Below are positions 50,055 through 57,735 of a stretch of DNA of 64,000 nucleotides, in pieces. The DNA lies in the NCBI GenBank assembly GCA_000165425.1, contig CT867985.1, positions 744,001-808,000 on the forward strand. The letters are read 5' to 3'. The translations under genes and the position numbers were made by a program. The stretch is from Paramecium tetraurelia (lineage: Eukaryota). Under the pieces are notes generated by a model that did not search any database, was not told the DNA's origin, and was given only the letters and a program-made list of their open reading frames with translations. Each line of letters starts with the position of its first letter. Positions within the stretch are counted from its first letter, which is position 1.

Positions 50055-53000
50055 TCATTAAAAGAGTATACTTAAAAGCTTTTCTAATTCTTATTTGTGT
50101 ACAGTTGGTGATCCACTTGCTGTTGATGCTGAAGGTCTTCTACCACAAAATGTTAAATATTGATGTTTAATTTTGCTTTATTGATGTAGCAAGGATAAAA
50201 CCTAAGATAAATTCTGTTAATACATTTTAAATTCTTGGTTCTAGATATTGCCAAGCACCTGAGTTTTAATGTTCTTCTTAACAGAATACAAATTCTGCAT
50301 TCTCATATTATTAAGCAACTACTCTGAAATGGTCATATGGAAAAGGTGCTAATTATTCTACTCTAACGATAGCAACGTCCTAAGTATATTAATAAATATT
50401 TACATTTCGTTTTTGTTTCTTGTCTTTTCTATAAAATGTCATAATAAACTTAACCATAGCAGATGACAACCTTTTTTATTTCTTTAGGAGCTTTAATTTC
50501 TTCGTGAGTATCAGGAATCAGTCTATGGAATCTAGTGCCTTCAAGGAAAAGAGAAATATCAGAAGTTGCCTTAGAAAATTTAAGTAATCTTTTAGAATTG
50601 AATAAAATTAAAGGTTTTCTAAAGTCTCTTCTTAGTTATCTACGCAGAGAGTGGAAATAATTGGAAGGGTTTGAACAGACACACACTTAGAAATTAGAAT
50701 CGAGAATTTGTCTCTTAATTCTCTACTCTTTCATCTGAAATACAATGTTAGGATCATCATCCATCAATTATAAAAATCTTTCCATTCTTCCACTGGAATG
50801 TTCAGGTCCTTAGCCATCTAATCCATGAGGTAACATCATAACAAGTCCTGAGGGTACATTCCATTTAGATTCTCCTGAAGTAATGAAATTGTCAATCATG
50901 ATTTAACATCCATTAGCGAAATCTCCAAATTGTCCTTCCCAAATCGTCAGAACATTAGGATTAGATTGAGAATATCCATATTCGAATCCTAAGACTCCGT
51001 ATTCTGACAATGGAGAGTTGTAAACTTCAAATCTATTATTTCCTCCAGAAGGTATTTAATTTCTAAGTGGATAATATTTGATATCTTTCTTTTGATCATT
51101 AAGGACTGCATGTCTTTATGAGAATGTTCCTCTTTCACAGTCTTGACCACTCAATCTTATACTGAATCCTTCATGTAACAAGGTACCAAAAGCCAGAGCT
51201 TCAGCAGTTCCAAAGTCAATTCCTTTTCCTTATTCAATAGACTACTTTCTTTATTCATAAATTCTCTTGACTTATGGATGAACAGTCAACTCAGCAGGTA
51301 AATGATTGACTTTCTCGTTCAACTCTAATAAATCCTTCAAAGCAACACCAGTATCCTTTACCTTTCCCCATTTGGTCACTTATTAAATCTTTTCCCATGG
51401 TTTAGGTACCCAATGTACTTTATCGAAGGTTTCCTTTTAGATGTTTTTATAAGCAGTCTCTAGACTATTGTTTAACTTCTTAATTTCGGTACTTGCAAAA
51501 TCATCTGTAATAACTCCATTTTTTCTTAATTATTGATCATATAATTGAAATACAGGTTTTTATTTATTAATGATTTCATACATTTATGGTTGAGTGAATG
51601 CAGGTTAATCCTATTCATTATGACCATATCTTCTATATCCAATCAAATCAATTACAATATCCTTTTTGAATTACTATCTGAATCTAACAGCAATTTTGAA
51701 TATTTCTTCTACAAGATCAGGATCATCAGCATTAACATGAATAATAGGTACATCAATAGCCTTAGCAACATCTGTACAATATAAACCAGATCTACTATCA
51801 ATTGGAGTTGTAGTAAATCCAATTTGATTATTAACCACAACATGGATAACACCTTCATTTGAATATCCTGTCAAATTTTCAAGTTATAATGATTCATAGA
51901 CAACTCCTTAACCAGCCATAGCAGCATCTCCATGAATGATGATACCTAAACAGTTTTGTTTATTTCCACAAATGTCTTACAATGCTCTAGTCTTACCTTA
52001 TACAACTGGATTGACAGCTTCTAAATGAGATGGATTTGGTAACATTGTCATTCTAATATGATGTCCATCTGGGAATTATTAATCCCTTGTGACTCCCAAA
52101 TGATATTTCACATCTCCAATATTACCCCATGATTCTTCTATTTCCTTACTGTATTTATTTTAAAATTCTGCAAATATTATTTCCAATGGTTTCTTAAATA
52201 CATTAGCTAATGTGCTTAATCTTCCTCTGTGAGCCATTCCCACAATGATATGTTCAACCTTATTTTGAGCACATTAATCTACAAGTGCTTCTAAACCTAC
52301 GATTAATGTGTCTGTGCCTTCAATTCCAAATCTTTTGCTTGTTGTGAATCTGTTTTTCAAAAACTCATTAAATAGGTCAACTCTAGCTAATCTCTACCAA
52401 GTAGCTGTTTAAGTCTCCTTACTTGGTTTCCATTATGCTATTCTATCCATTTCCTGTTCAACCCAATGTTTTTATTCTGTCGATACCATGTGAATGTATT
52501 CAACCCCGTATTTTTTTGTATAGATTTAAGATAATCTATCATAGATTTCTCTGATTGTCCACTCCTCCTTAACTTCCATAAATGGCTATTCATAGCAATT
52601 ATCAATTACATAGATAAATGATCTTTAATCCTTGTTTCCAAAATAAATTGGGATATCCAATTCTTCCTTCTTAAACCCAAAACTATCCAAAGTCATCTCT
52701 GGTCTCGAGCCCTTCACTCTTCCGTATTCTTTTGTGTTAGGTAGATCTAATAATAAATCACAATATTAGATTACTTAATGGATCCAAATCAGCCAATTAA
52801 TGTCCGCATACGAAAAACATTCTAAACATATAGTAAGTACGATATAGCAATTGTATTTGTTTAGCATGATCCAATGGATTCAAAGATGTTGTGCCTTAGA
52901 CACCTGCTCCACCATTAATCTATTAATAACACTAAAACAAACTTGTTCGCTAAAATATTGTCTCCATCCTTCAGGAACTGATTAAGGGTTCTTTTACCAA

Positions 53001-53071
53001 TGTTCAAACAACCCACTAACATATGTTGCCGAAAAAGAATATCTGATCACTTTATTTGAGGCTCTTATCAT
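50055..53071 (-). CDS. OGDH: 2-oxoglutarate dehydrogenase E1 component, mitochondrial
   Basis: [73 protein letters not shown]. Confidence 0.97.
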
Positions 53072-54159
53072 CGAATTAAAGATATTAAATATTAAATTTA
53101 TTCACTTAAACTAAAACAAGAATGATTATAATATCATTTTATAATAATTCTTTATTGCACCTCAAACATCAAGACTAATTATATATTTATAATAATTCGT
53201 AATTTGAACGAAATCTCGAATCAAAAATACGAAGCATATTTATTATTAAATATTAAATTACGCACTAACTCTCTCTTCTCAATTCAGTTACACCAATCTA
53301 TTCATCTTAAATTTTGATTCTTTACAAGATTTATACGCATTTTAAATTACTTTAACCTCTTAATTTATTGAAAAGAATTGTTTATTTATCATTTACATCC
53401 TTTTTTATTGATTTCTAAGTTTCAGTATCATTTTACTAATTTTAAGTAGACGAATATTTAATTAAGTAATAATTATAATCTTTATAAAAAAGAAAAGCTA
53501 TTCATGTAAACAATCATTAGATTTACTTCAAGTTCTTAATTGCTTAAGTTTATTTTTCTCTTTTTCTTTAAATTTAAAACTTTATTGAAAATTAATTAAA
53601 ATTCCTATTTTTTAATGAAAACTAAGAGAATTACAAAGTTTTGAATCCCAAAATTAAATTAAAGTGTGTTTCTTTGAATTAACATCAACAAAATTTAAAG
53701 AGAGATATTTCAACATTGTTTTTTTGTTTGATTTAAATATTATACCCTATTCATAATAGTCAATCTCATTATTTTTTTTTATTATATCACCAGTACGTCC
53801 CTTTTGGTAACTGTTGAAATTATTACATTTACTCAAAACGCCTAATTATAAATATATCTCAATATAAATTTATCCTTCAAACAATATTAAAGTAATCATT
53901 CTGAGTTATGATACAACTATTATTAAATGAGATTAGAAATTATTGAACCAAGTAACATTTCATTAGAAGCTATTTGTGCTAAAGAGATTATTTAGATTTA
54001 AACTGGATTCCAATAAAAAATCAAAATATTTGTAGATTTAAGAACGTTGAGTGCTTTTTATTCTATTATTATATAAATTATCCAATCAAAATTAATATAA
54101 AATTGTGAAATTTCATTCTTAATCAAAGAATAAGAATTTTCAATTTTAATAATAAACAA

Positions 54160-54410
54160 ATGGGAAGACAAGCAAAAACTTAAAAGAAAGCTCCTAAAGC
54201 AGGTAAGTTTTTAGTTTAATTTGAATAGCCACTAAAAAAATTGCAAAAAAACCAGCTGGCCCAAGATAAACTAGAACAATCAAGGCTGCAGTTGCTGAAG
54301 CTTAAGCTACAACTTAACCAAGTGCTGGATAAAGAAAATTACCAAGATAAAACAGAAGAAACAAGCAAGCCAAAAAAGCTAATTCTAAGAAAGCAGCATA
54401 AAAAAAATGA
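54160..54410 (+). CDS. 74-aa Lys/Ala/Arg-rich basic microprotein (linker histone H1-like)
   Basis: MGRQAKTQKKAPKAATKKIAKKPAGPRQTRTIKAAVAEAQATTQPSAGQRKLPRQNRRNKQAKKANSKKAAQKK*; canonical 26-nt intron 54203-54228. Confidence 0.82.
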
Positions 54411-54538
54411 ATGGATATATAATTAATAAAATATTACAATAAAATGTTTATTTGATTTCATGTTTTCAAGTAATAAATATTGGTGATCTAAGCATTACTC
54501 CATCTTTTGAATAATACTTATAACTAGATAATTAAATA

Positions 54539-55330
54539 ATGAACCCATAACATTACTATTGAGAAAATCTATTATGAAATAATAAATCCTTTAGATTAGA
54601 AGGATCAAACTAAATCATAATTTATATCGCAAATCTTAGCCTTAACAATATTAAAGTCTCTTTTTAAAGGCAAATACATTAAGAAACCTTTGAAATAATG
54701 ATGATGATGATGAATGAAATGGAGCTTAATTACAAAATTCTGTTTCTCTAAAATACTTAATTCTCTATGCAAGACAAAAGAGTCATTCAAATTAATAAGA
54801 GTTTAGTTAAGAGTTAACAAGGAGTTAGAGTTTAATTCAGAACTAATTTTGTAAGAAGGTATATTCGAGGCTTATTTAGCACAACATTTATTTTTTAAAT
54901 AGCATTTTGCAAAATTGTTTTATCTAAGCCATAATAAGTAAGTAGATAATTTTAATAATATTAAATTAATTGAACACTCATTTAAAAGTTTCTGAGATTT
55001 AAAAAATTGAATTTAGAGCTAAAATTATAGCATAAATCTAAATATCCTAAATTCACTAAACTTTCTAAGTGAGATTAAGAATGCATGGATATTGTCAGAT
55101 ATTTCAATTAATGAATAAAAATACATGAAATAAGAAGGTATTGCTTAATATGAATGATATTATAATATTTTAATAATGTAGTCAATAGAGTTTTCTACAA
55201 TCTCTAAAAATCCAACTTCAAAGAAAATAAATAGTAAAATAAGAATAAATCAAAAATTTAGAAAAATTAGTTTGTTTTTCGAAGCCTAAGTGCTTAATTT
55301 ATAAATCTAGACTTTGGAATGAATATGTTT
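54539..55330 (+). pseudogene. Probable decayed gene remnant
   Basis: Coding-like fragments in shifting frames with internal TGAs, including an (ATG)5 tract near 54708. Confidence 0.3.
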
Positions 55331-55379
55331 TGTAATTGATGATTTAACTTCTTACTTATTATTAAAATTTAAATTAATA

Positions 55380-57735
55380 ATGCAAGAGCCATTTAAAGTG
55401 AGTATTAGAGTGAAACCATATGAGGGAAGATCAAGATTTCTCACTTAGAGAATAGGAAAAGAAACTGTAATATCAAAATAAACAATAAATAGATTATACA
55501 AGTAGAATGTCCAACTTAGACAATACGAGATCCTGATACTTATGAATAAAGATCATTTGCATTTGATAATGTGTTCAATGATGGAGAGAGCACACAAGAT
55601 ATTTACGATTAAGTAGATAAATTAAATGTATAATACTAGTCAATATCATAAATGATTTATGATTGTGTTTCTTAAGGATATAATGGAACAATTTTGGCGT
55701 ATGGTTAAACAGGTTCAGGAAAGAGTTACACAATGTTTGGCAACTTATACGATCCTTTGGTAGAAAATGATGGATTGGTTTCGATGGTTTTAGAATAATT
55801 ATTCCAAATGAACGTTAAAATTAGTATTTCATATTTGGAAATTTACAATGAACAAATACGAGATTTAATTGGAGATTAGGTTGGATTGCAGTTGAATGAA
55901 GACCCTATTAAGGGAGTCATGTTATAAGATGTGCAGGAATTGTAAATTATGACTATAGATCATGCAAAATCAATAATAATTAATGGCAATTAAAAAAGAG
56001 TAATGGCTGCAACTAATGCTAACCAATTCTCTTCTCGATCCCATGCAATTATATAATTATTTGTTGTAAACTAACAATACCAATGCAAATTATCCTTAGT
56101 GGATTTGGCAGGAAGTGAAAAAGCCAATGTAAATGAAGGTAGTAAAGGAATTAGACAAATGGAAGGGGCTAATATCAATAAAAGTCTATTGGCCCTAGGA
56201 AATTGCATCAATATGTTGGCTTGTGATTAATCAATGAAGAAGTTTGTGCCTTACAGGGATTCAAAATTAACTAGACTTTTAAAAGACTCTTTGGGAGGCA
56301 ACACTAAAACTCTTATGATAGGGTGCGTAAAACAAATAGTTTAATGTCATGAGGAGAGTATTAATACTCTAAAATATGCATCCAGAGCCAGAGCTATAAA
56401 AAAAAAGATTGTCTAAAATATCAAAATTAATGATGTCACTAATTGTAGTTGTAATTGCAATTCAGAAAATGTAAGCCTATTGCAAGCTGAGATTGAAGCA
56501 TTAAAATAAGAAGTATCATTCTAGTGTACATAATTATTAATAATATCATAGGTTAATTGACAGAAGAAGAGATTGAAATAAGATTGAATTTAAAGCAAAT
56601 CGATTAATTGCAATTCTAAAACAGAGAAGGCTTAGAATATTTGTTACAATAAATGAATTCTGAGATGATAGATGAAGATCGATTGAAGAATGAAATAATG
56701 TAATATGAAAGAGCGATTAATGAAAATGAGAGAATCCGATAAGAGTTGACTTCTCAATTGTAATCTAAGAAGAAAGAAAGAACTGATCCAAGAGACATTC
56801 AAATTGAGATGCTTAAAAAAGAAATTACTTTTCTCAGAGATCAGATTAAATAAAAGGATTTAGTTATTGATTCCTTGAAAATGGATAAGGATAATAGTAA
56901 ATAATCCAGACCACACACTAGTTATTAAGAAACCGATAGACCAAAGATGAATAAAGAGAACTCTATCGAAATTGATGTCAGAAAGGACAGTCTGTAATAT
57001 TGTGGCTCATCTAAATCTATTAAGTAGCCTACAAATAGGGAAGAAGAATAACATCTATAGAAATTGAATAAAGCCAGAGATAACTATAAGATATTTAGGG
57101 CTAAAATGATTCAACTCTAAGAAAAAATGAATTATTACACTAAAAACGACGTTCAATTAAACCAGAATCAATTAAAAGAAATAATTGATATGATGAATGA
57201 ACTCTCAACTCAGAATGGTCCTGTTCTCAAATAAGATGAAGAAATGATAATCTACTTCCAAAAATTCATTAAGTCTTAAACTTAGAAATCTTAATAGCAA
57301 ATAAATCAAAGTACTTTGAATACGCAAATTACTACACCGCAATAAAGATCAAGGAGTGTCAACCCAAATCCAATCAGAGGAAAGGGAACTTCTTAGCATT
57401 AGAGAAAGCCTTTGTAACCAACCAATTAATCACCGATGAATCGATAATTATTCAGTAATCACACTAAACAATATCAGTAATTAGTTTAAAAAGGAAAGAA
57501 GGTATACATTGGTTTGATTTTAGGAAAGTTGTCCCACTCCGTAGAATAAATAAAAGTACATTTTGGAATACGTAAAGAAAATGGAAAATTAAATACCGAG
57601 GGGGAGTAACAAGTCCCCACTACAATCATTTAGCTCAGATAATTCGGATAAGTATTAATTCACTAATATAAGACCAGAGACGATATTATTAAGCGTAGTT
57701 TTATCTAAAAGGTTCCGTTTCAATCAATTTAATGA
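55380..57735 (+). CDS. Kinesin motor, kinesin-8 (KIF18/19, Kip3)-like
   Basis: [64 protein letters not shown]. Confidence 0.92.

Follow-up and report, generated by a model that had tools for sequence, protein, structure and literature searches.

A spliced gene of Paramecium tetraurelia encoding a small, very basic, Paramecium-only protein with an invariant core and a possible role in chromatin or RNA binding

Gene structure and transcription of the locus

The analysed window is a stretch of 64,000 nucleotides of P. tetraurelia DNA. The locus of interest comprises the following features, in positions of this window:

53067-54159, no strand: divergent intergenic region of ~1.1 kb, AT-rich (GC 0.17-0.23)
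54160-54202, plus strand: exon 1 (43 nt) with the ATG at 54160, coding for Met1-Ala14 and one further base, the first of codon 15, i.e. the beginning of the Lys/Ala-rich N-terminal tail
54203-54228, plus strand: intron of 26 nt, GT..AG (GTAAGT...TAG), GC 0.19
54229-54410, plus strand: exon 2 (182 nt with the TGA stop), coding for residues 15-74
54258-54371, plus strand: core-coding stretch (residues 25-62), family-defining, with invariant alignment columns
54411-54457, plus strand: approximate 3' UTR, based on the disappearance of RNA coverage beyond this bin

Translated with the ciliate code (table 6), the spliced product has 74 amino acids, among them 17 Lys, 16 Ala, 9 Gln, 7 Arg, 6 Thr and 5 Pro. 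Its sole acidic residue is E38, and it has a mass of 8 kDa and a net charge of +23. The spliced basic ORF of the preliminary description, with its 17 Lys, 7 Arg, 16 Ala and single acidic residue, was thus confirmed together with its two exons and the 26-nt intron. The sequence motifs that had been described as repeats, KAPKAA and AKKPA, are present at residues 10 and 20, respectively, but are motifs rather than repeats since each of them occurs only once. The product is 100% identical to the annotated, uncharacterised P. tetraurelia protein P0002 (XP_001423428 / Q6BGE3); it had not escaped annotation, and the expectation that such a tiny protein would be missed is not supported.

The GC content of the coding sequence is 0.351, compared to 0.204 upstream and 0.214 downstream, in agreement with the locally raised GC that had been noted before; a lone 200-bp GC island (0.345) sits on the coding sequence within ~2.4 kb of DNA at 0.17-0.255. 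The unspliced reading frame is open over 108 codons. Since the window contains 253 stop-to-stop frames of at least 110 amino acids under table 6, an open frame alone is uninformative, and the status of the locus as a gene rests on RNA, on splicing, on conservation and on a core in which the nucleotide differences are exclusively synonymous.

Expression was analysed using the raw reads of three stranded oligo-dT (poly(A)) RNA runs. The stranded depth in the three runs was 117-469 over positions 54215-54295 and 72-333 over 54296-54376, dropped to 5-40 in the bin 54377-54457 and was 0 in the bins from 54458. Splicing was supported by 3, 9 and 5 reads which aligned up to 54202 and then ran on into the beginning of exon 2; the loose ends of these reads are CCACTAAAA..., i.e. 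the sequence from 54229 onward. Reads of paralogue mRNAs were clipped at the same exon-exon junction (53, 164 and 139 reads). The depth over exon 2 was 4-15 times that over the 5' end of the neighbouring 2-oxoglutarate dehydrogenase (OGDH) gene in the same runs, part of it consisting of cross-mapping paralogue reads.

In these poly(A) RNA runs, approximately 1 kb on either side of the gene was transcriptionally silent. Upstream, the depth was zero across 53162-54052 and did not exceed 0.06 in either of the bins at the edges (53081-53161 and 54053-54133), and the OGDH transcript on the minus strand ends at ~53060-53066. The intergenic gap of ~1.1 kb, whose unusual length had been pointed out in the preliminary description, is therefore real, and the region 53067-54159 between OGDH and the gene of the basic protein presumably holds both promoters. 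No Rfam family reached its gathering score in the flanks, no tRNA was found in the 64-kb window and the long frames of the flanks matched no Pfam family. Two weak candidates were discarded: mir-203, which lies inside the neighbouring gene (22.4 bits versus a gathering score of 65), and Lysyl_oxidase in the flank frames (E 0.0042, under the family cut-off).

A Paramecium family with two subfamilies and a common core

The protein belongs to a family with 14 full-length members from six species, all of them Paramecium, including five paralogues in P. tetraurelia. With a transcript (stranded poly(A) RNA and splice reads) and conservation both present, two of the outcomes that the preliminary description had named as speaking against it did not occur. 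The family splits into subfamily 1, which is Lys/Ala-rich and 72-75 residues long, and a sister subfamily 2, which is Arg-rich, starts with 'MKPL' and measures 76-77 residues. Three of the P. tetraurelia paralogues are of the Lys/Ala type and are 80-97% identical. All members share the same architecture, consisting of a variable Lys-rich tail, an invariant core of 38 residues and a variable Lys/Arg-rich tail. The order within the core is GPRQTRTI (GPRxTRTI in the family), a predicted helix at residues 32-41, QPSAG and the beginning of the Arg-rich helix RKLPRQNRRNK.

Identity in the core amounts to 95% within subfamily 1 and to 72% between the subfamilies, the latter against values of 25% and 2% in the tails. 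The tails of the 74-residue protein (24 and 12 residues) carry 8 Lys/1 Arg and 6 Lys/0 Arg, and the core (residues 25-62) carries 3 Lys/6 Arg. The net charge lies between +21 and +24 in 14/14 members. Aromatic residues, His and Cys are absent from subfamily 1, whose members have 0-1 acidic residues; subfamily 2 has 3-6 Ala, 10-14 Arg and 2-3 acidic residues. Among the nucleotide differences found in reads and contigs of paralogues, 7/9 are synonymous, including 5/5 of those within the core. Judged from these comparisons, the core is under purifying selection, and the conserved feature is the 38-residue core and not the Lys/Ala richness. Unlike Tetrahymena macronuclear H1 in the preliminary description, the protein is not essentially a K/A-rich tail: selection keeps an Arg-rich, non-repetitive core, and Ala richness is not a feature of the sister subfamily. 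In two further entries, P0013 and P0019, the family unit stands at the N-terminal end of models of 830-849 amino acids, the latter being named SIT4 phosphatase-associated protein; we read these long forms as fused gene models.

These data bear on the alternative that the locus is not a functional protein-coding gene but an open frame that arose by chance in transcribed, AT-rich DNA. The one-stop code with its many long frames in the window and the 108 open codons of the unspliced frame would be compatible with it. It is effectively refuted by a stranded poly(A) transcript that is exactly spliced and limited to the frame, by the 14 full-length relatives in six Paramecium species, by the exclusively synonymous differences in the core and by a GC island exactly over the coding sequence.

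Searches for domains, folds and relatives

In order to assign the protein to a known family, seven members (P0002, P0003, P0004, P0012, P0014, P0015 and P0016) were compared to Pfam-A using hmmscan at E<=10. No significant family was obtained for any of the seven and, at this threshold, neither Linker_histone (PF00538) nor any ribosomal or RNA-binding family appeared; the exon-2 peptide (P0001) had no match in Pfam either. Med3 (E 3.7-4.1 in full-length members) and Sirohm_synth_M (E 0.012, under its cut-off) were regarded as noise. Sequence searches of the PDB gave 0 matches for profile A1 and, among 177,635 distinct sequences including those of ciliate ribosomes, eL28 as the best match for profile A3. 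This match had an E-value of 4.3, ran over a Lys-rich stretch and was rejected. A ribosomal protein, a match to which had been named as a further outcome against a chromatin protein, was accordingly found neither in Pfam (7/7 members) nor in the PDB. P0004 matched a designed helical-repeat protein alone, a helix-cap look-alike rather than a homologue, and H1/H5 chains were not among the PDB sequence matches.

AlphaFold2, run with a 14-row alignment, predicted two helices (residues 32-41 and 53-72) at a pTM of 0.33, with the highest confidence for residues 51-60 (block-mean pLDDT 90). The model contains no winged helix, consistent with the missing globular domain in the preliminary description. 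Foldseek against the PDB with this low-pTM model returned a single, meaningless row (E=6.6), and in the ESM Atlas the top score was 0.79 among unnamed clusters, with no usable named cluster. The RRSARLS pattern of the RRSARLSA-type HMGN core, the RGRP core of the AT-hook and the minor-groove motif SPKK are all absent from the 74 residues. Some small proteins were considered and dropped: the bacterial-type ribosomal protein bL34, which has a T-x-QPS flavour in common but whose His-Gly-Phe motif is absent here and which gave no Pfam match, as well as TMA7, SERF and Sec61-beta (there is no membrane segment in the Paramecium protein).

A profile search of 1.84 billion representative proteins added one protein, again from P. 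tetraurelia, and none outside Paramecium. In the JGI metagenomes, a scan with a protein pattern matched 148 stretches, of which 0 were relatives. As this type of scan back-translates Gln by the standard code, it was repeated at the DNA level with TAA/TAG also accepted as Gln codons, and the family core was found upstream of the match in 0/46 loci. Relatives in other ciliates were found neither among the representative proteins nor in the metagenome scans. A search for 12 accession or gene identifiers of the family in a literature library found no paper mentioning any of them, nor were the identifiers found in three supplementary files of PMC3091696.

The linker-histone question

The preliminary description had proposed that the protein could be the missing H1 of Paramecium. 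Its premise is in print: where they deal with linker histones, PMC8997361 and PMC8997360 (2022, Genome Research) describe Paramecium as a genus without an identified homologue of H1 or Hho1, and a 2023 preprint likewise describes Paramecium as being without a known linker histone. According to the nucleosome repeat given in PMC8997360, only a few bp of linker are left, so that there would be little linker DNA for an H1-type tail and no H1 would strictly be 'missing'.

Nothing in our data shows that the 74-residue protein is this linker histone. We consider it very unlikely that it is a true one, i.e. a descendant of H1 or its functional equivalent, which would sit at the nucleosome entry/exit and on linker DNA and set compaction. 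Tails rich in Lys, Ala and Pro would fit this explanation, and UniRef names the paralogue A0C0E7 'H15 domain-containing protein', an automatic label and as such weak evidence. A further, tentative lead is the spacing P-x4-[MT]-I-x2-A-[IV] of helix 1 of the globular domain, which may be matched in register by P26...T31 I32...A35 V36. Tail-only H1s are known in Euplotes, Toxoplasma and Tetrahymena, the macronuclear H1 of the latter (Hho1) having clustered S/TPxK sites. The Euplotes H1 is described in PMC4122937 as being without similarity to the globular domain, and the Toxoplasma protein TgH1-like, as presented in PMC9769792, is tail-only with 91 residues, nuclear and nucleolar, co-purifies with histones as well as with ribosomal proteins and is reported there to be similar to trypanosomatid H1.

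Against a linker histone stands that neither Linker_histone in Pfam (7/7 members) nor H1/H5 chains in the PDB were matched and that the two helices predicted for the protein come without a wing. The Lys:Arg ratio is 17:7 with an Arg-rich conserved part, and the Lys/Ala richness is not conserved in the sister subfamily. There are no phosphorylatable S/TPxK sites, as had been noted before, and not even an SP or TP dipeptide anywhere in the 74 residues. H1 tails normally keep their composition and lose their sequence; in this family the opposite holds, with a retained sequence and a lost composition. Moreover, no relatives were found in H1-bearing ciliates by the profile search of the representative proteins, and the few bp of linker given in PMC8997360 would leave such a protein little to bind.

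Chromatin or RNA as target

Our tentative reading, which we put forward as plausible though short of probable, is that of a small nuclear polycation which acts on chromatin in an HMGN-type or tail-only H1-like manner and is not a demonstrable H1 orthologue. The protein would reside in the nucleus, where its invariant core, built from an N-capped short helix, the QPSAG turn and the Arg-rich helix RKLPRQNRRNK, would dock on one defined, conserved chromatin surface, on the nucleosome or on nucleosomal DNA. The cationic tails, which evolve fast, would neutralise nearby phosphates, and docking and neutralisation together would give the HMGN-type or tail-only H1-like mode of action. The two subfamilies might serve different nuclei or life stages. 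We infer that the protein binds nucleic acid, lies in the nucleus and acts on chromatin instead of RNA. A composition with such a net charge and, in subfamily 1, without aromatic, His or Cys residues is typical of disordered polycations like histone tails, H1 and HMGN, and not of folded or ribosomal proteins. The combination of a common core with different tails would be closer to what is seen in variants of histones or linker histones than in ribosomal protein duplicates, and the tail-only H1-like proteins of alveolates and ciliates may be taken, by analogy, as precedents. The lack of a known H1 in Paramecium and, as weak evidence, the automatic H15 name of A0C0E7 would also agree with this reading.

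Several observations weigh against chromatin as the target. An Arg/Asn/Gln-rich conserved helix is equally typical of RNA-binding arginine-rich motifs (ARMs), the sister subfamily is rich in Arg instead of Lys/Ala, and no similarity to any chromatin family was found in Pfam (7/7 members) or the PDB. The HMGN core motif, the AT-hook and SPKK are absent, and a linker of a few bp (PMC8997360) offers little DNA to an H1-type tail. In addition, the family was found in no other ciliate, and one might expect greater age of a core chromatin component.

The main competing explanation is a small basic RNA-binding protein, in which the Arg/Asn/Gln-rich helix would grip structured RNA as an arginine-rich motif and the tails would add unspecific affinity; it seems possible, if rather doubtful, to us, and we favour chromatin slightly over RNA or ribosome binding. 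In this case the protein would bind rRNA or pre-rRNA in the nucleolus, be associated with ribosomes in a lineage-specific way or belong to another RNP. The RKLPRQNRRNK helix is the most confidently predicted part of the model, and Arg is concentrated in the core as well as, with 10-14 residues next to 3-6 Ala, in the sister subfamily. A near-invariant core across old paralogues and several kept duplicates would be in keeping with highly expressed RNP components, as would the depth over exon 2 relative to OGDH, to which cross-mapping paralogues contribute in part. In Toxoplasma, the H1-like protein was found in nucleoli and co-purified with ribosomal proteins, as stated in PMC9769792. Ribosomal and RNA-binding Pfam families, however, were unmatched in 7/7 members at E<=10, and no PDB sequence was matched better than at E=4.3. 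The lack of aromatic residues and His in subfamily 1 would be unusual for proteins embedded in rRNA, and divergent tails between subfamilies would be atypical of ribosomal paralogues.

Two further possibilities were weighed next to the chromatin-acting polycation. It is unlikely, in our estimate, that the family represents the lineage's own nucleosome-binding architectural protein, functionally replacing a linker histone by means of an Arg anchor, DNA-clamping Lys tails and subfamilies specific for MAC/MIC or for stages. In that case the Arg-rich core anchor would be convergent with HMGN or with viral acidic-patch binders. A polycation with a target outside chromatin and RNPs, such as the acidic tubulin tails or basal-body structures, polyphosphate or a regulated acidic partner, is less likely still. 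It would agree with general properties of the protein, namely its extreme charge and disorder, its invariant docking core and its restriction to one lineage, and with the many lineage-specific cortical structures of Paramecium. Solved ciliary and microtubule chains in the PDB were unmatched, though, hydrophobic and aromatic residues for protein-protein packing are missing, and nothing specific speaks for such a target.

Significance

Our data establish the gene structure, its splicing and poly(A) expression, conservation within Paramecium, purifying selection on the core and the lack of a globular domain or known family, and this very basic, Paramecium-only protein could be a chromatin or RNA-binding protein. 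In the macronuclear chromatin of Paramecium, the nucleosome repeat leaves just a few bp of linker, and classical heterochromatin is absent. Since the two 2022 Genome Research papers report no known Paramecium H1, the family is a cheap candidate to test, and it offers a concrete starting point for the question of how such chromatin is organised. A chromatin-bound product would represent an architectural protein specific to this lineage and equipped with a conserved docking motif, and a ribosomal or nucleolar one an RNP component of the lineage. Either outcome would give a function to an expressed and strongly constrained orphan family, and if neither applied, the locus would be an ordinary orphan gene.

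Comparison with known systems

With canonical H1/H5, the protein shares the automatic 'H15 domain-containing protein' name of A0C0E7 alone; the winged helix, three helices plus a beta hairpin in ~75 residues, is unmatched by a model with two helices. The tail-only H1s (Tetrahymena Hho1, Euplotes, trypanosomatid and TgH1-like) are closer in that they are small, lack a globular domain and have stretches rich in Lys, Ala and Pro. Compared by description, however, they show low complexity over their whole length and far more Lys than Arg, whereas the Paramecium protein has a ratio of 17:7, has Lys/Ala-rich parts limited to short tails of 24 and 12 residues and is conserved as a sequence, the Arg-rich core, rather than as a composition. 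The clustered S/TPxK sites of Tetrahymena H1 have no counterpart in it.

Protamines and transition proteins consist of Arg to about half or more and often contain Cys, and the protamine-like option of the preliminary description is not supported by a protein with 7 Arg in 74 residues and no Cys. ARM peptides, a functional class and not a family, and small basic ribosomal proteins resemble the protein in their small size, their strong conservation and a short Arg/Asn/Gln-rich helix, predicted with confidence here. They differ from it in that subfamily 1 has no aromatic residues, and no ribosomal Pfam family or solved ribosome chain matches the Paramecium protein.

The HMGN proteins are vertebrate nucleosome-binding proteins of ~90-100 residues with a conserved Arg-rich core between variable Lys-rich segments. 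The Paramecium protein is likewise small, disordered and very basic, with a conserved Arg-rich core between variable segments rich in Lys, Ala and Pro. Its Arg-rich stretch, however, is RKLPRQNRRNK instead of the RRSARLSA-type core, and in place of the acidic, chromatin-unfolding C-terminal domain of HMGN it has a Lys/Arg-rich tail. As HMGN proteins are, to our knowledge, restricted to vertebrates, any likeness would be convergence. The HMGN-like option of the preliminary description fits the layout better than H1 does, purely as an analogy; the HMGN core motif and the acidic C-terminus are absent. HMGN binds the nucleosome core and not linker DNA. An HMGN-like binding to the core would suit Paramecium, because almost no linker DNA is present in its chromatin as described in PMC8997360.

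A spliced and expressed gene for a small basic protein

With a GC content of 0.270 the window is AT-rich, and it has the look of ciliate DNA in which TAA and TAG encode Gln. The small gene and its neighbours are located as follows:

50336-52879, - strand: 2-oxoglutarate dehydrogenase E1 gene (OGDH; E1_dh 3.7e-51, Transket_pyr 1.6e-46, OxoGdeHyase_C 2e-12)
54160-54202, + strand: exon 1 of the small gene, 43 nt, opening with ATG at 54160
54203-54228, + strand: intron, 26 nt, GTAAGT...TAG, GC 0.19
54229-54410, + strand: exon 2, 182 nt, with TGA at its end
55424-56557, + strand: kinesin motor gene (Kinesin 6.1e-81), start near 55380-55424, probably continuing to 57732

Spliced and translated with table 6 (TGA the only stop), the small gene encodes 74 residues (K17, A16, Q9, R7, T6, P5 and one acidic residue). 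Its coding sequence, with a GC content of 0.351 compared to 0.20-0.21 in the flanks, is the single GC island within about 2.4 kb at GC 0.17-0.255. The preliminary description of a spliced, Lys/Ala-rich ORF with raised GC was accurate in every detail except for the "repeats", as KAPKAA and AKKPA occur only once each; it was also right about the absence of S/TPxK sites, a motif scan of the product having found no [ST]P dipeptide. The open frame alone is worthless as evidence, since the window contains 253 stop-to-stop frames of at least 110 aa in table 6 and retention of the intron (54160-54486, + strand) introduces no early stop, leaving 108 codons open up to the TGA at 54484-54486.

Expression was assessed by mapping raw reads of three oligo-dT, stranded RNA runs labelled P. 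tetraurelia on 53000-55400. The mean depths, which owing to cross-mapping paralogues are not to be taken as the level of the window gene alone, were 117.5, 469.2 and 354.7 over 54215-54295 and 72.1, 333.1 and 273.3 over 54296-54376. Pairs with a minus-strand first mate account for almost the whole of this depth; the plus-strand value never exceeds 2.05 in a bin. The adjoining minus-strand gene behaved in the reverse manner, with a depth of 31-40 for first-mate-plus pairs and 0 for first-mate-minus pairs in bin 53000-53080; this calibrates the library and assigns the small RNA to the plus strand. At the splice site, 3, 9 and 5 reads match the window as far as 54202 and then go on with CCACTAAAA..., which begins at 54229. 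Another 53, 164 and 139 reads, clipped immediately ahead of 54229, show ...GGTCCCAAAGC, which encodes KKGPKA as in paralogue P0003; these reads therefore represent cross-mapping spliced mRNA of a paralogue. The paralogue T at 54230 was present in 61/80, 212/351 and 164/254 reads, and the window gene's own share of junction reads was only about a quarter to two-fifths. With stranded poly(A) RNA on the plus strand and the 54202/54229 junction seen in reads, the transcript that the preliminary description had proposed to look for was found. The window gene is real, spliced and expressed, and it is exceedingly improbable that the locus is not a gene. The depth of the small gene plus cross-mapping paralogues (54215-54376) relative to the OGDH 5' end (53000-53080) was 3.8, 15 and 8.9; this roughly four-fold spread among three samples of one study indicates that the family is regulated.

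OGDH transcripts have their 5' end at about 53060-53066 (depth 31-40 in the three runs), so that OGDH and the small gene are divergent and about 1.1 kb apart. Roughly 0.9 kb without RNA lies between the small gene and the kinesin gene, whose first bases (to 55400) had no coverage in the three runs. No run had any depth at 53162-54052 or 54458-55400, and the edge bins 53081-53161 and 54053-54133 did not exceed 0.06; neither flank contained an Rfam family at gathering score, a tRNA or a Pfam-bearing frame. The 250-bp gene stands alone in about 2.3 kb of AT-rich DNA without poly(A) RNA (53067-54159, 54458-55380; GC 0.17-0.255), and flanks of about 1 kb on both sides are long for such a compact genome. 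Contigs of a further run, X1, break at 53109, 53736, 54002, 54103, 54946 and 55257, all within the two AT-rich flanks, and continue with 255 unrelated letters; these breaks may reflect germline internal eliminated sequences or branches in the assembly graph of X1.

A Paramecium family with an invariant core

A search with the exon-2 peptide yielded three database clusters, and the window product is identical to P0002 (XP_001423428 / Q6BGE3), an 'unnamed protein product' of P. tetraurelia scaffold_1. Alignment-based searches gave 14 full-length members from P. tetraurelia, primaurelia, pentaurelia, octaurelia and sonneborni. The paralogues and orthologues suggested for a search in the preliminary description thus exist, with five copies in P. 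tetraurelia (the window gene, GSPATT00003769001, GSPATT00006117001, GSPATT00024247001 and GSPATT00005571001) and members in further Paramecium species. The family unit also forms the N-terminus of two long models, P0013 (P. pentaurelia, 830 aa), residues 33-78 of which match family residues 25-70 at 83% identity, and P0019 (P. primaurelia, 849 aa), which shares the 90% cluster of P0013 and bears the name SIT4 phosphatase-associated protein; in both species the annotation has probably merged separate gene models, a true fusion being less likely. Two fragments of 46-48 aa, P0017 (Logan) and P0018 (ENA), carry about 9 unrelated residues exactly at the family intron position and end where a TAA Gln codon would stand. 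Judged by the alignment, they look like standard-code calls on unspliced ciliate DNA of further Paramecium-like sources, reading through the in-frame intron.

Among 1.84 billion representatives, a full HMMER search turned up a single match, from Paramecium itself. In JGI metagenomes, a protein-pattern scan returned 148 pattern matches without a relative, and a DNA pattern with TAA/TAG for Gln returned 46 loci, the family core being present in 0/46. Among protein representatives and JGI metagenome scans, the family is known only from Paramecium. The gene model and its paralogues are already public, but uncharacterised: 12 accession or gene identifiers of the family did not occur in the full-text literature searched.

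The members fall into subfamily 1 (10 sequences, 72-75 aa, Lys/Ala-rich, without aromatic, His or Cys residues) and subfamily 2 (4 sequences, 76-77 aa, starting with MKPL, in which Ala numbers only 3-6, Lys 9-14 and Arg 10-14). All 14 carry a net charge between +21 and +24. The positions that do not vary in any of them are K17, I19, K21 K22, P26 R27, T29 R30 T31 I32, A39 Q40, Q44 P45 S46 A47 G48, R50, L52 to K60 (LPRQNRRNK) and A62. In the window product, Lys predominates in both tails, with 8 K / 1 R and 6 K / 0 R; the core favours Arg, with 3 K / 6 R.

Table. Sequence identity by region in the alignment of 14 members.
N-tail, residues 1-24: 25% between subfamilies, 68% within subfamily 1
Core, residues 25-62: 72% between subfamilies, 95% within subfamily 1
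C-tail, residues 63-74: 2% between subfamilies, 60% within subfamily 1

Nucleotide differences in paralogue reads and contigs were synonymous in 7 of 9 cases, including 5/5 inside the core; the two replacements, N66K and A71T, both lie in the C-tail and agree with P0003. The protein is therefore under purifying selection, and what is selected is a specific 38-residue sequence and not the Lys/Ala composition. At codon 55 (54348-54350) in the invariant core, the window has TAA and the paralogue transcripts TAG, both Gln, a direct illustration of reassigned stops under purifying selection.

Structure and comparison with known families

AlphaFold2, run with the 14-row alignment, predicted helices at 32-41 and 53-72 and no globular fold (mean pLDDT 72.9, pTM 0.33; block-mean confidence peaks at 90 over residues 51-60). 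Pfam at E<=10 gave no relevant family for 7/7 members, neither Linker_histone nor any ribosomal family, and the best match in PDB sequence searches was eL28 at E=4.3 over a Lys-rich stretch; the ribosomal identity considered in the preliminary description did not surface. A designed repeat protein in the PDB was rejected, the match being a helix cap resembling GPRPTRTI... without family relation. Foldseek and the ESM Atlas gave no informative match, and HMGN core, AT-hook and SPKK motifs were absent from the product.

The only database pointer to H1 is the automatic UniRef name 'H15 domain-containing protein' on the paralogue A0C0E7. In the H1 globular domain, helix 1 shows the spacing P-x4-M-I-x2-A-I, with which we take P26, T31 I32 and A35 V36 of the family to be in register; this likeness may explain why a profile fired. 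The remainder of the H1 globular domain has no counterpart in the family. That the family is a true H1, whether by descent or through linker binding, is improbable. Our results neither demonstrate nor eliminate the H1 reading put forward in the preliminary description, and its version as a K/A-tail counterpart of Tetrahymena H1 agrees poorly with the pattern of conservation. As the family does not show the defining features tested for H1/H5, tail-only H1, HMGN, protamines and ribosomal proteins, we file it under the broad class of small polybasic nucleic-acid-binding architectural proteins, with no named family.

Likely function

The gene products are very basic and non-globular; an invariant helical core rich in Arg is flanked by cationic tails that evolve fast. 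We infer that such a protein must have a polyanion as its partner, and the unchanging core suggests one defined, conserved docking surface. The main rival to chromatin as the target is RNA or RNP binding, which we hold to be possible but doubtful: the conserved helix is rich in Arg, Asn and Gln, in the manner of arginine-rich RNA-binding motifs, subfamily 2 is Arg-rich, and the degree of conservation is like that of RNP components. Some other polyanion is a rather unlikely target.

Chromatin binding is the function that we tentatively favour, because subfamily 1 lacks aromatic, His and Cys residues, as do histone tails, H1 tails and HMGN, and because two subfamilies with a common core and different tails look like variants, ciliates having nucleus-specific linker proteins. 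The small gene is a worthwhile candidate, as yet unproven, for a chromatin or nucleolar protein specific to Paramecium. Chromatin is also favoured because tail-only H1-like proteins exist in alveolates: TgH1-like (91 aa) is described in part of PMC9769792 as nuclear and nucleolar and as co-purifying with histones and ribosomal proteins, and Euplotes H1, in a passage of PMC4122937, as having no similarity to the globular domain. No H1 is known in Paramecium according to passages of PMC8997361 and PMC8997360 and, likewise, of bioRxiv 10.1101/2023.08.09.552620. Paramecium linkers are only a few bp long, as stated in a passage of PMC8997360, and a nucleosome-core binder therefore makes more sense than a linker binder. 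The tail-core-tail layout of the family parallels that of HMGN, which is a further reason to favour chromatin.
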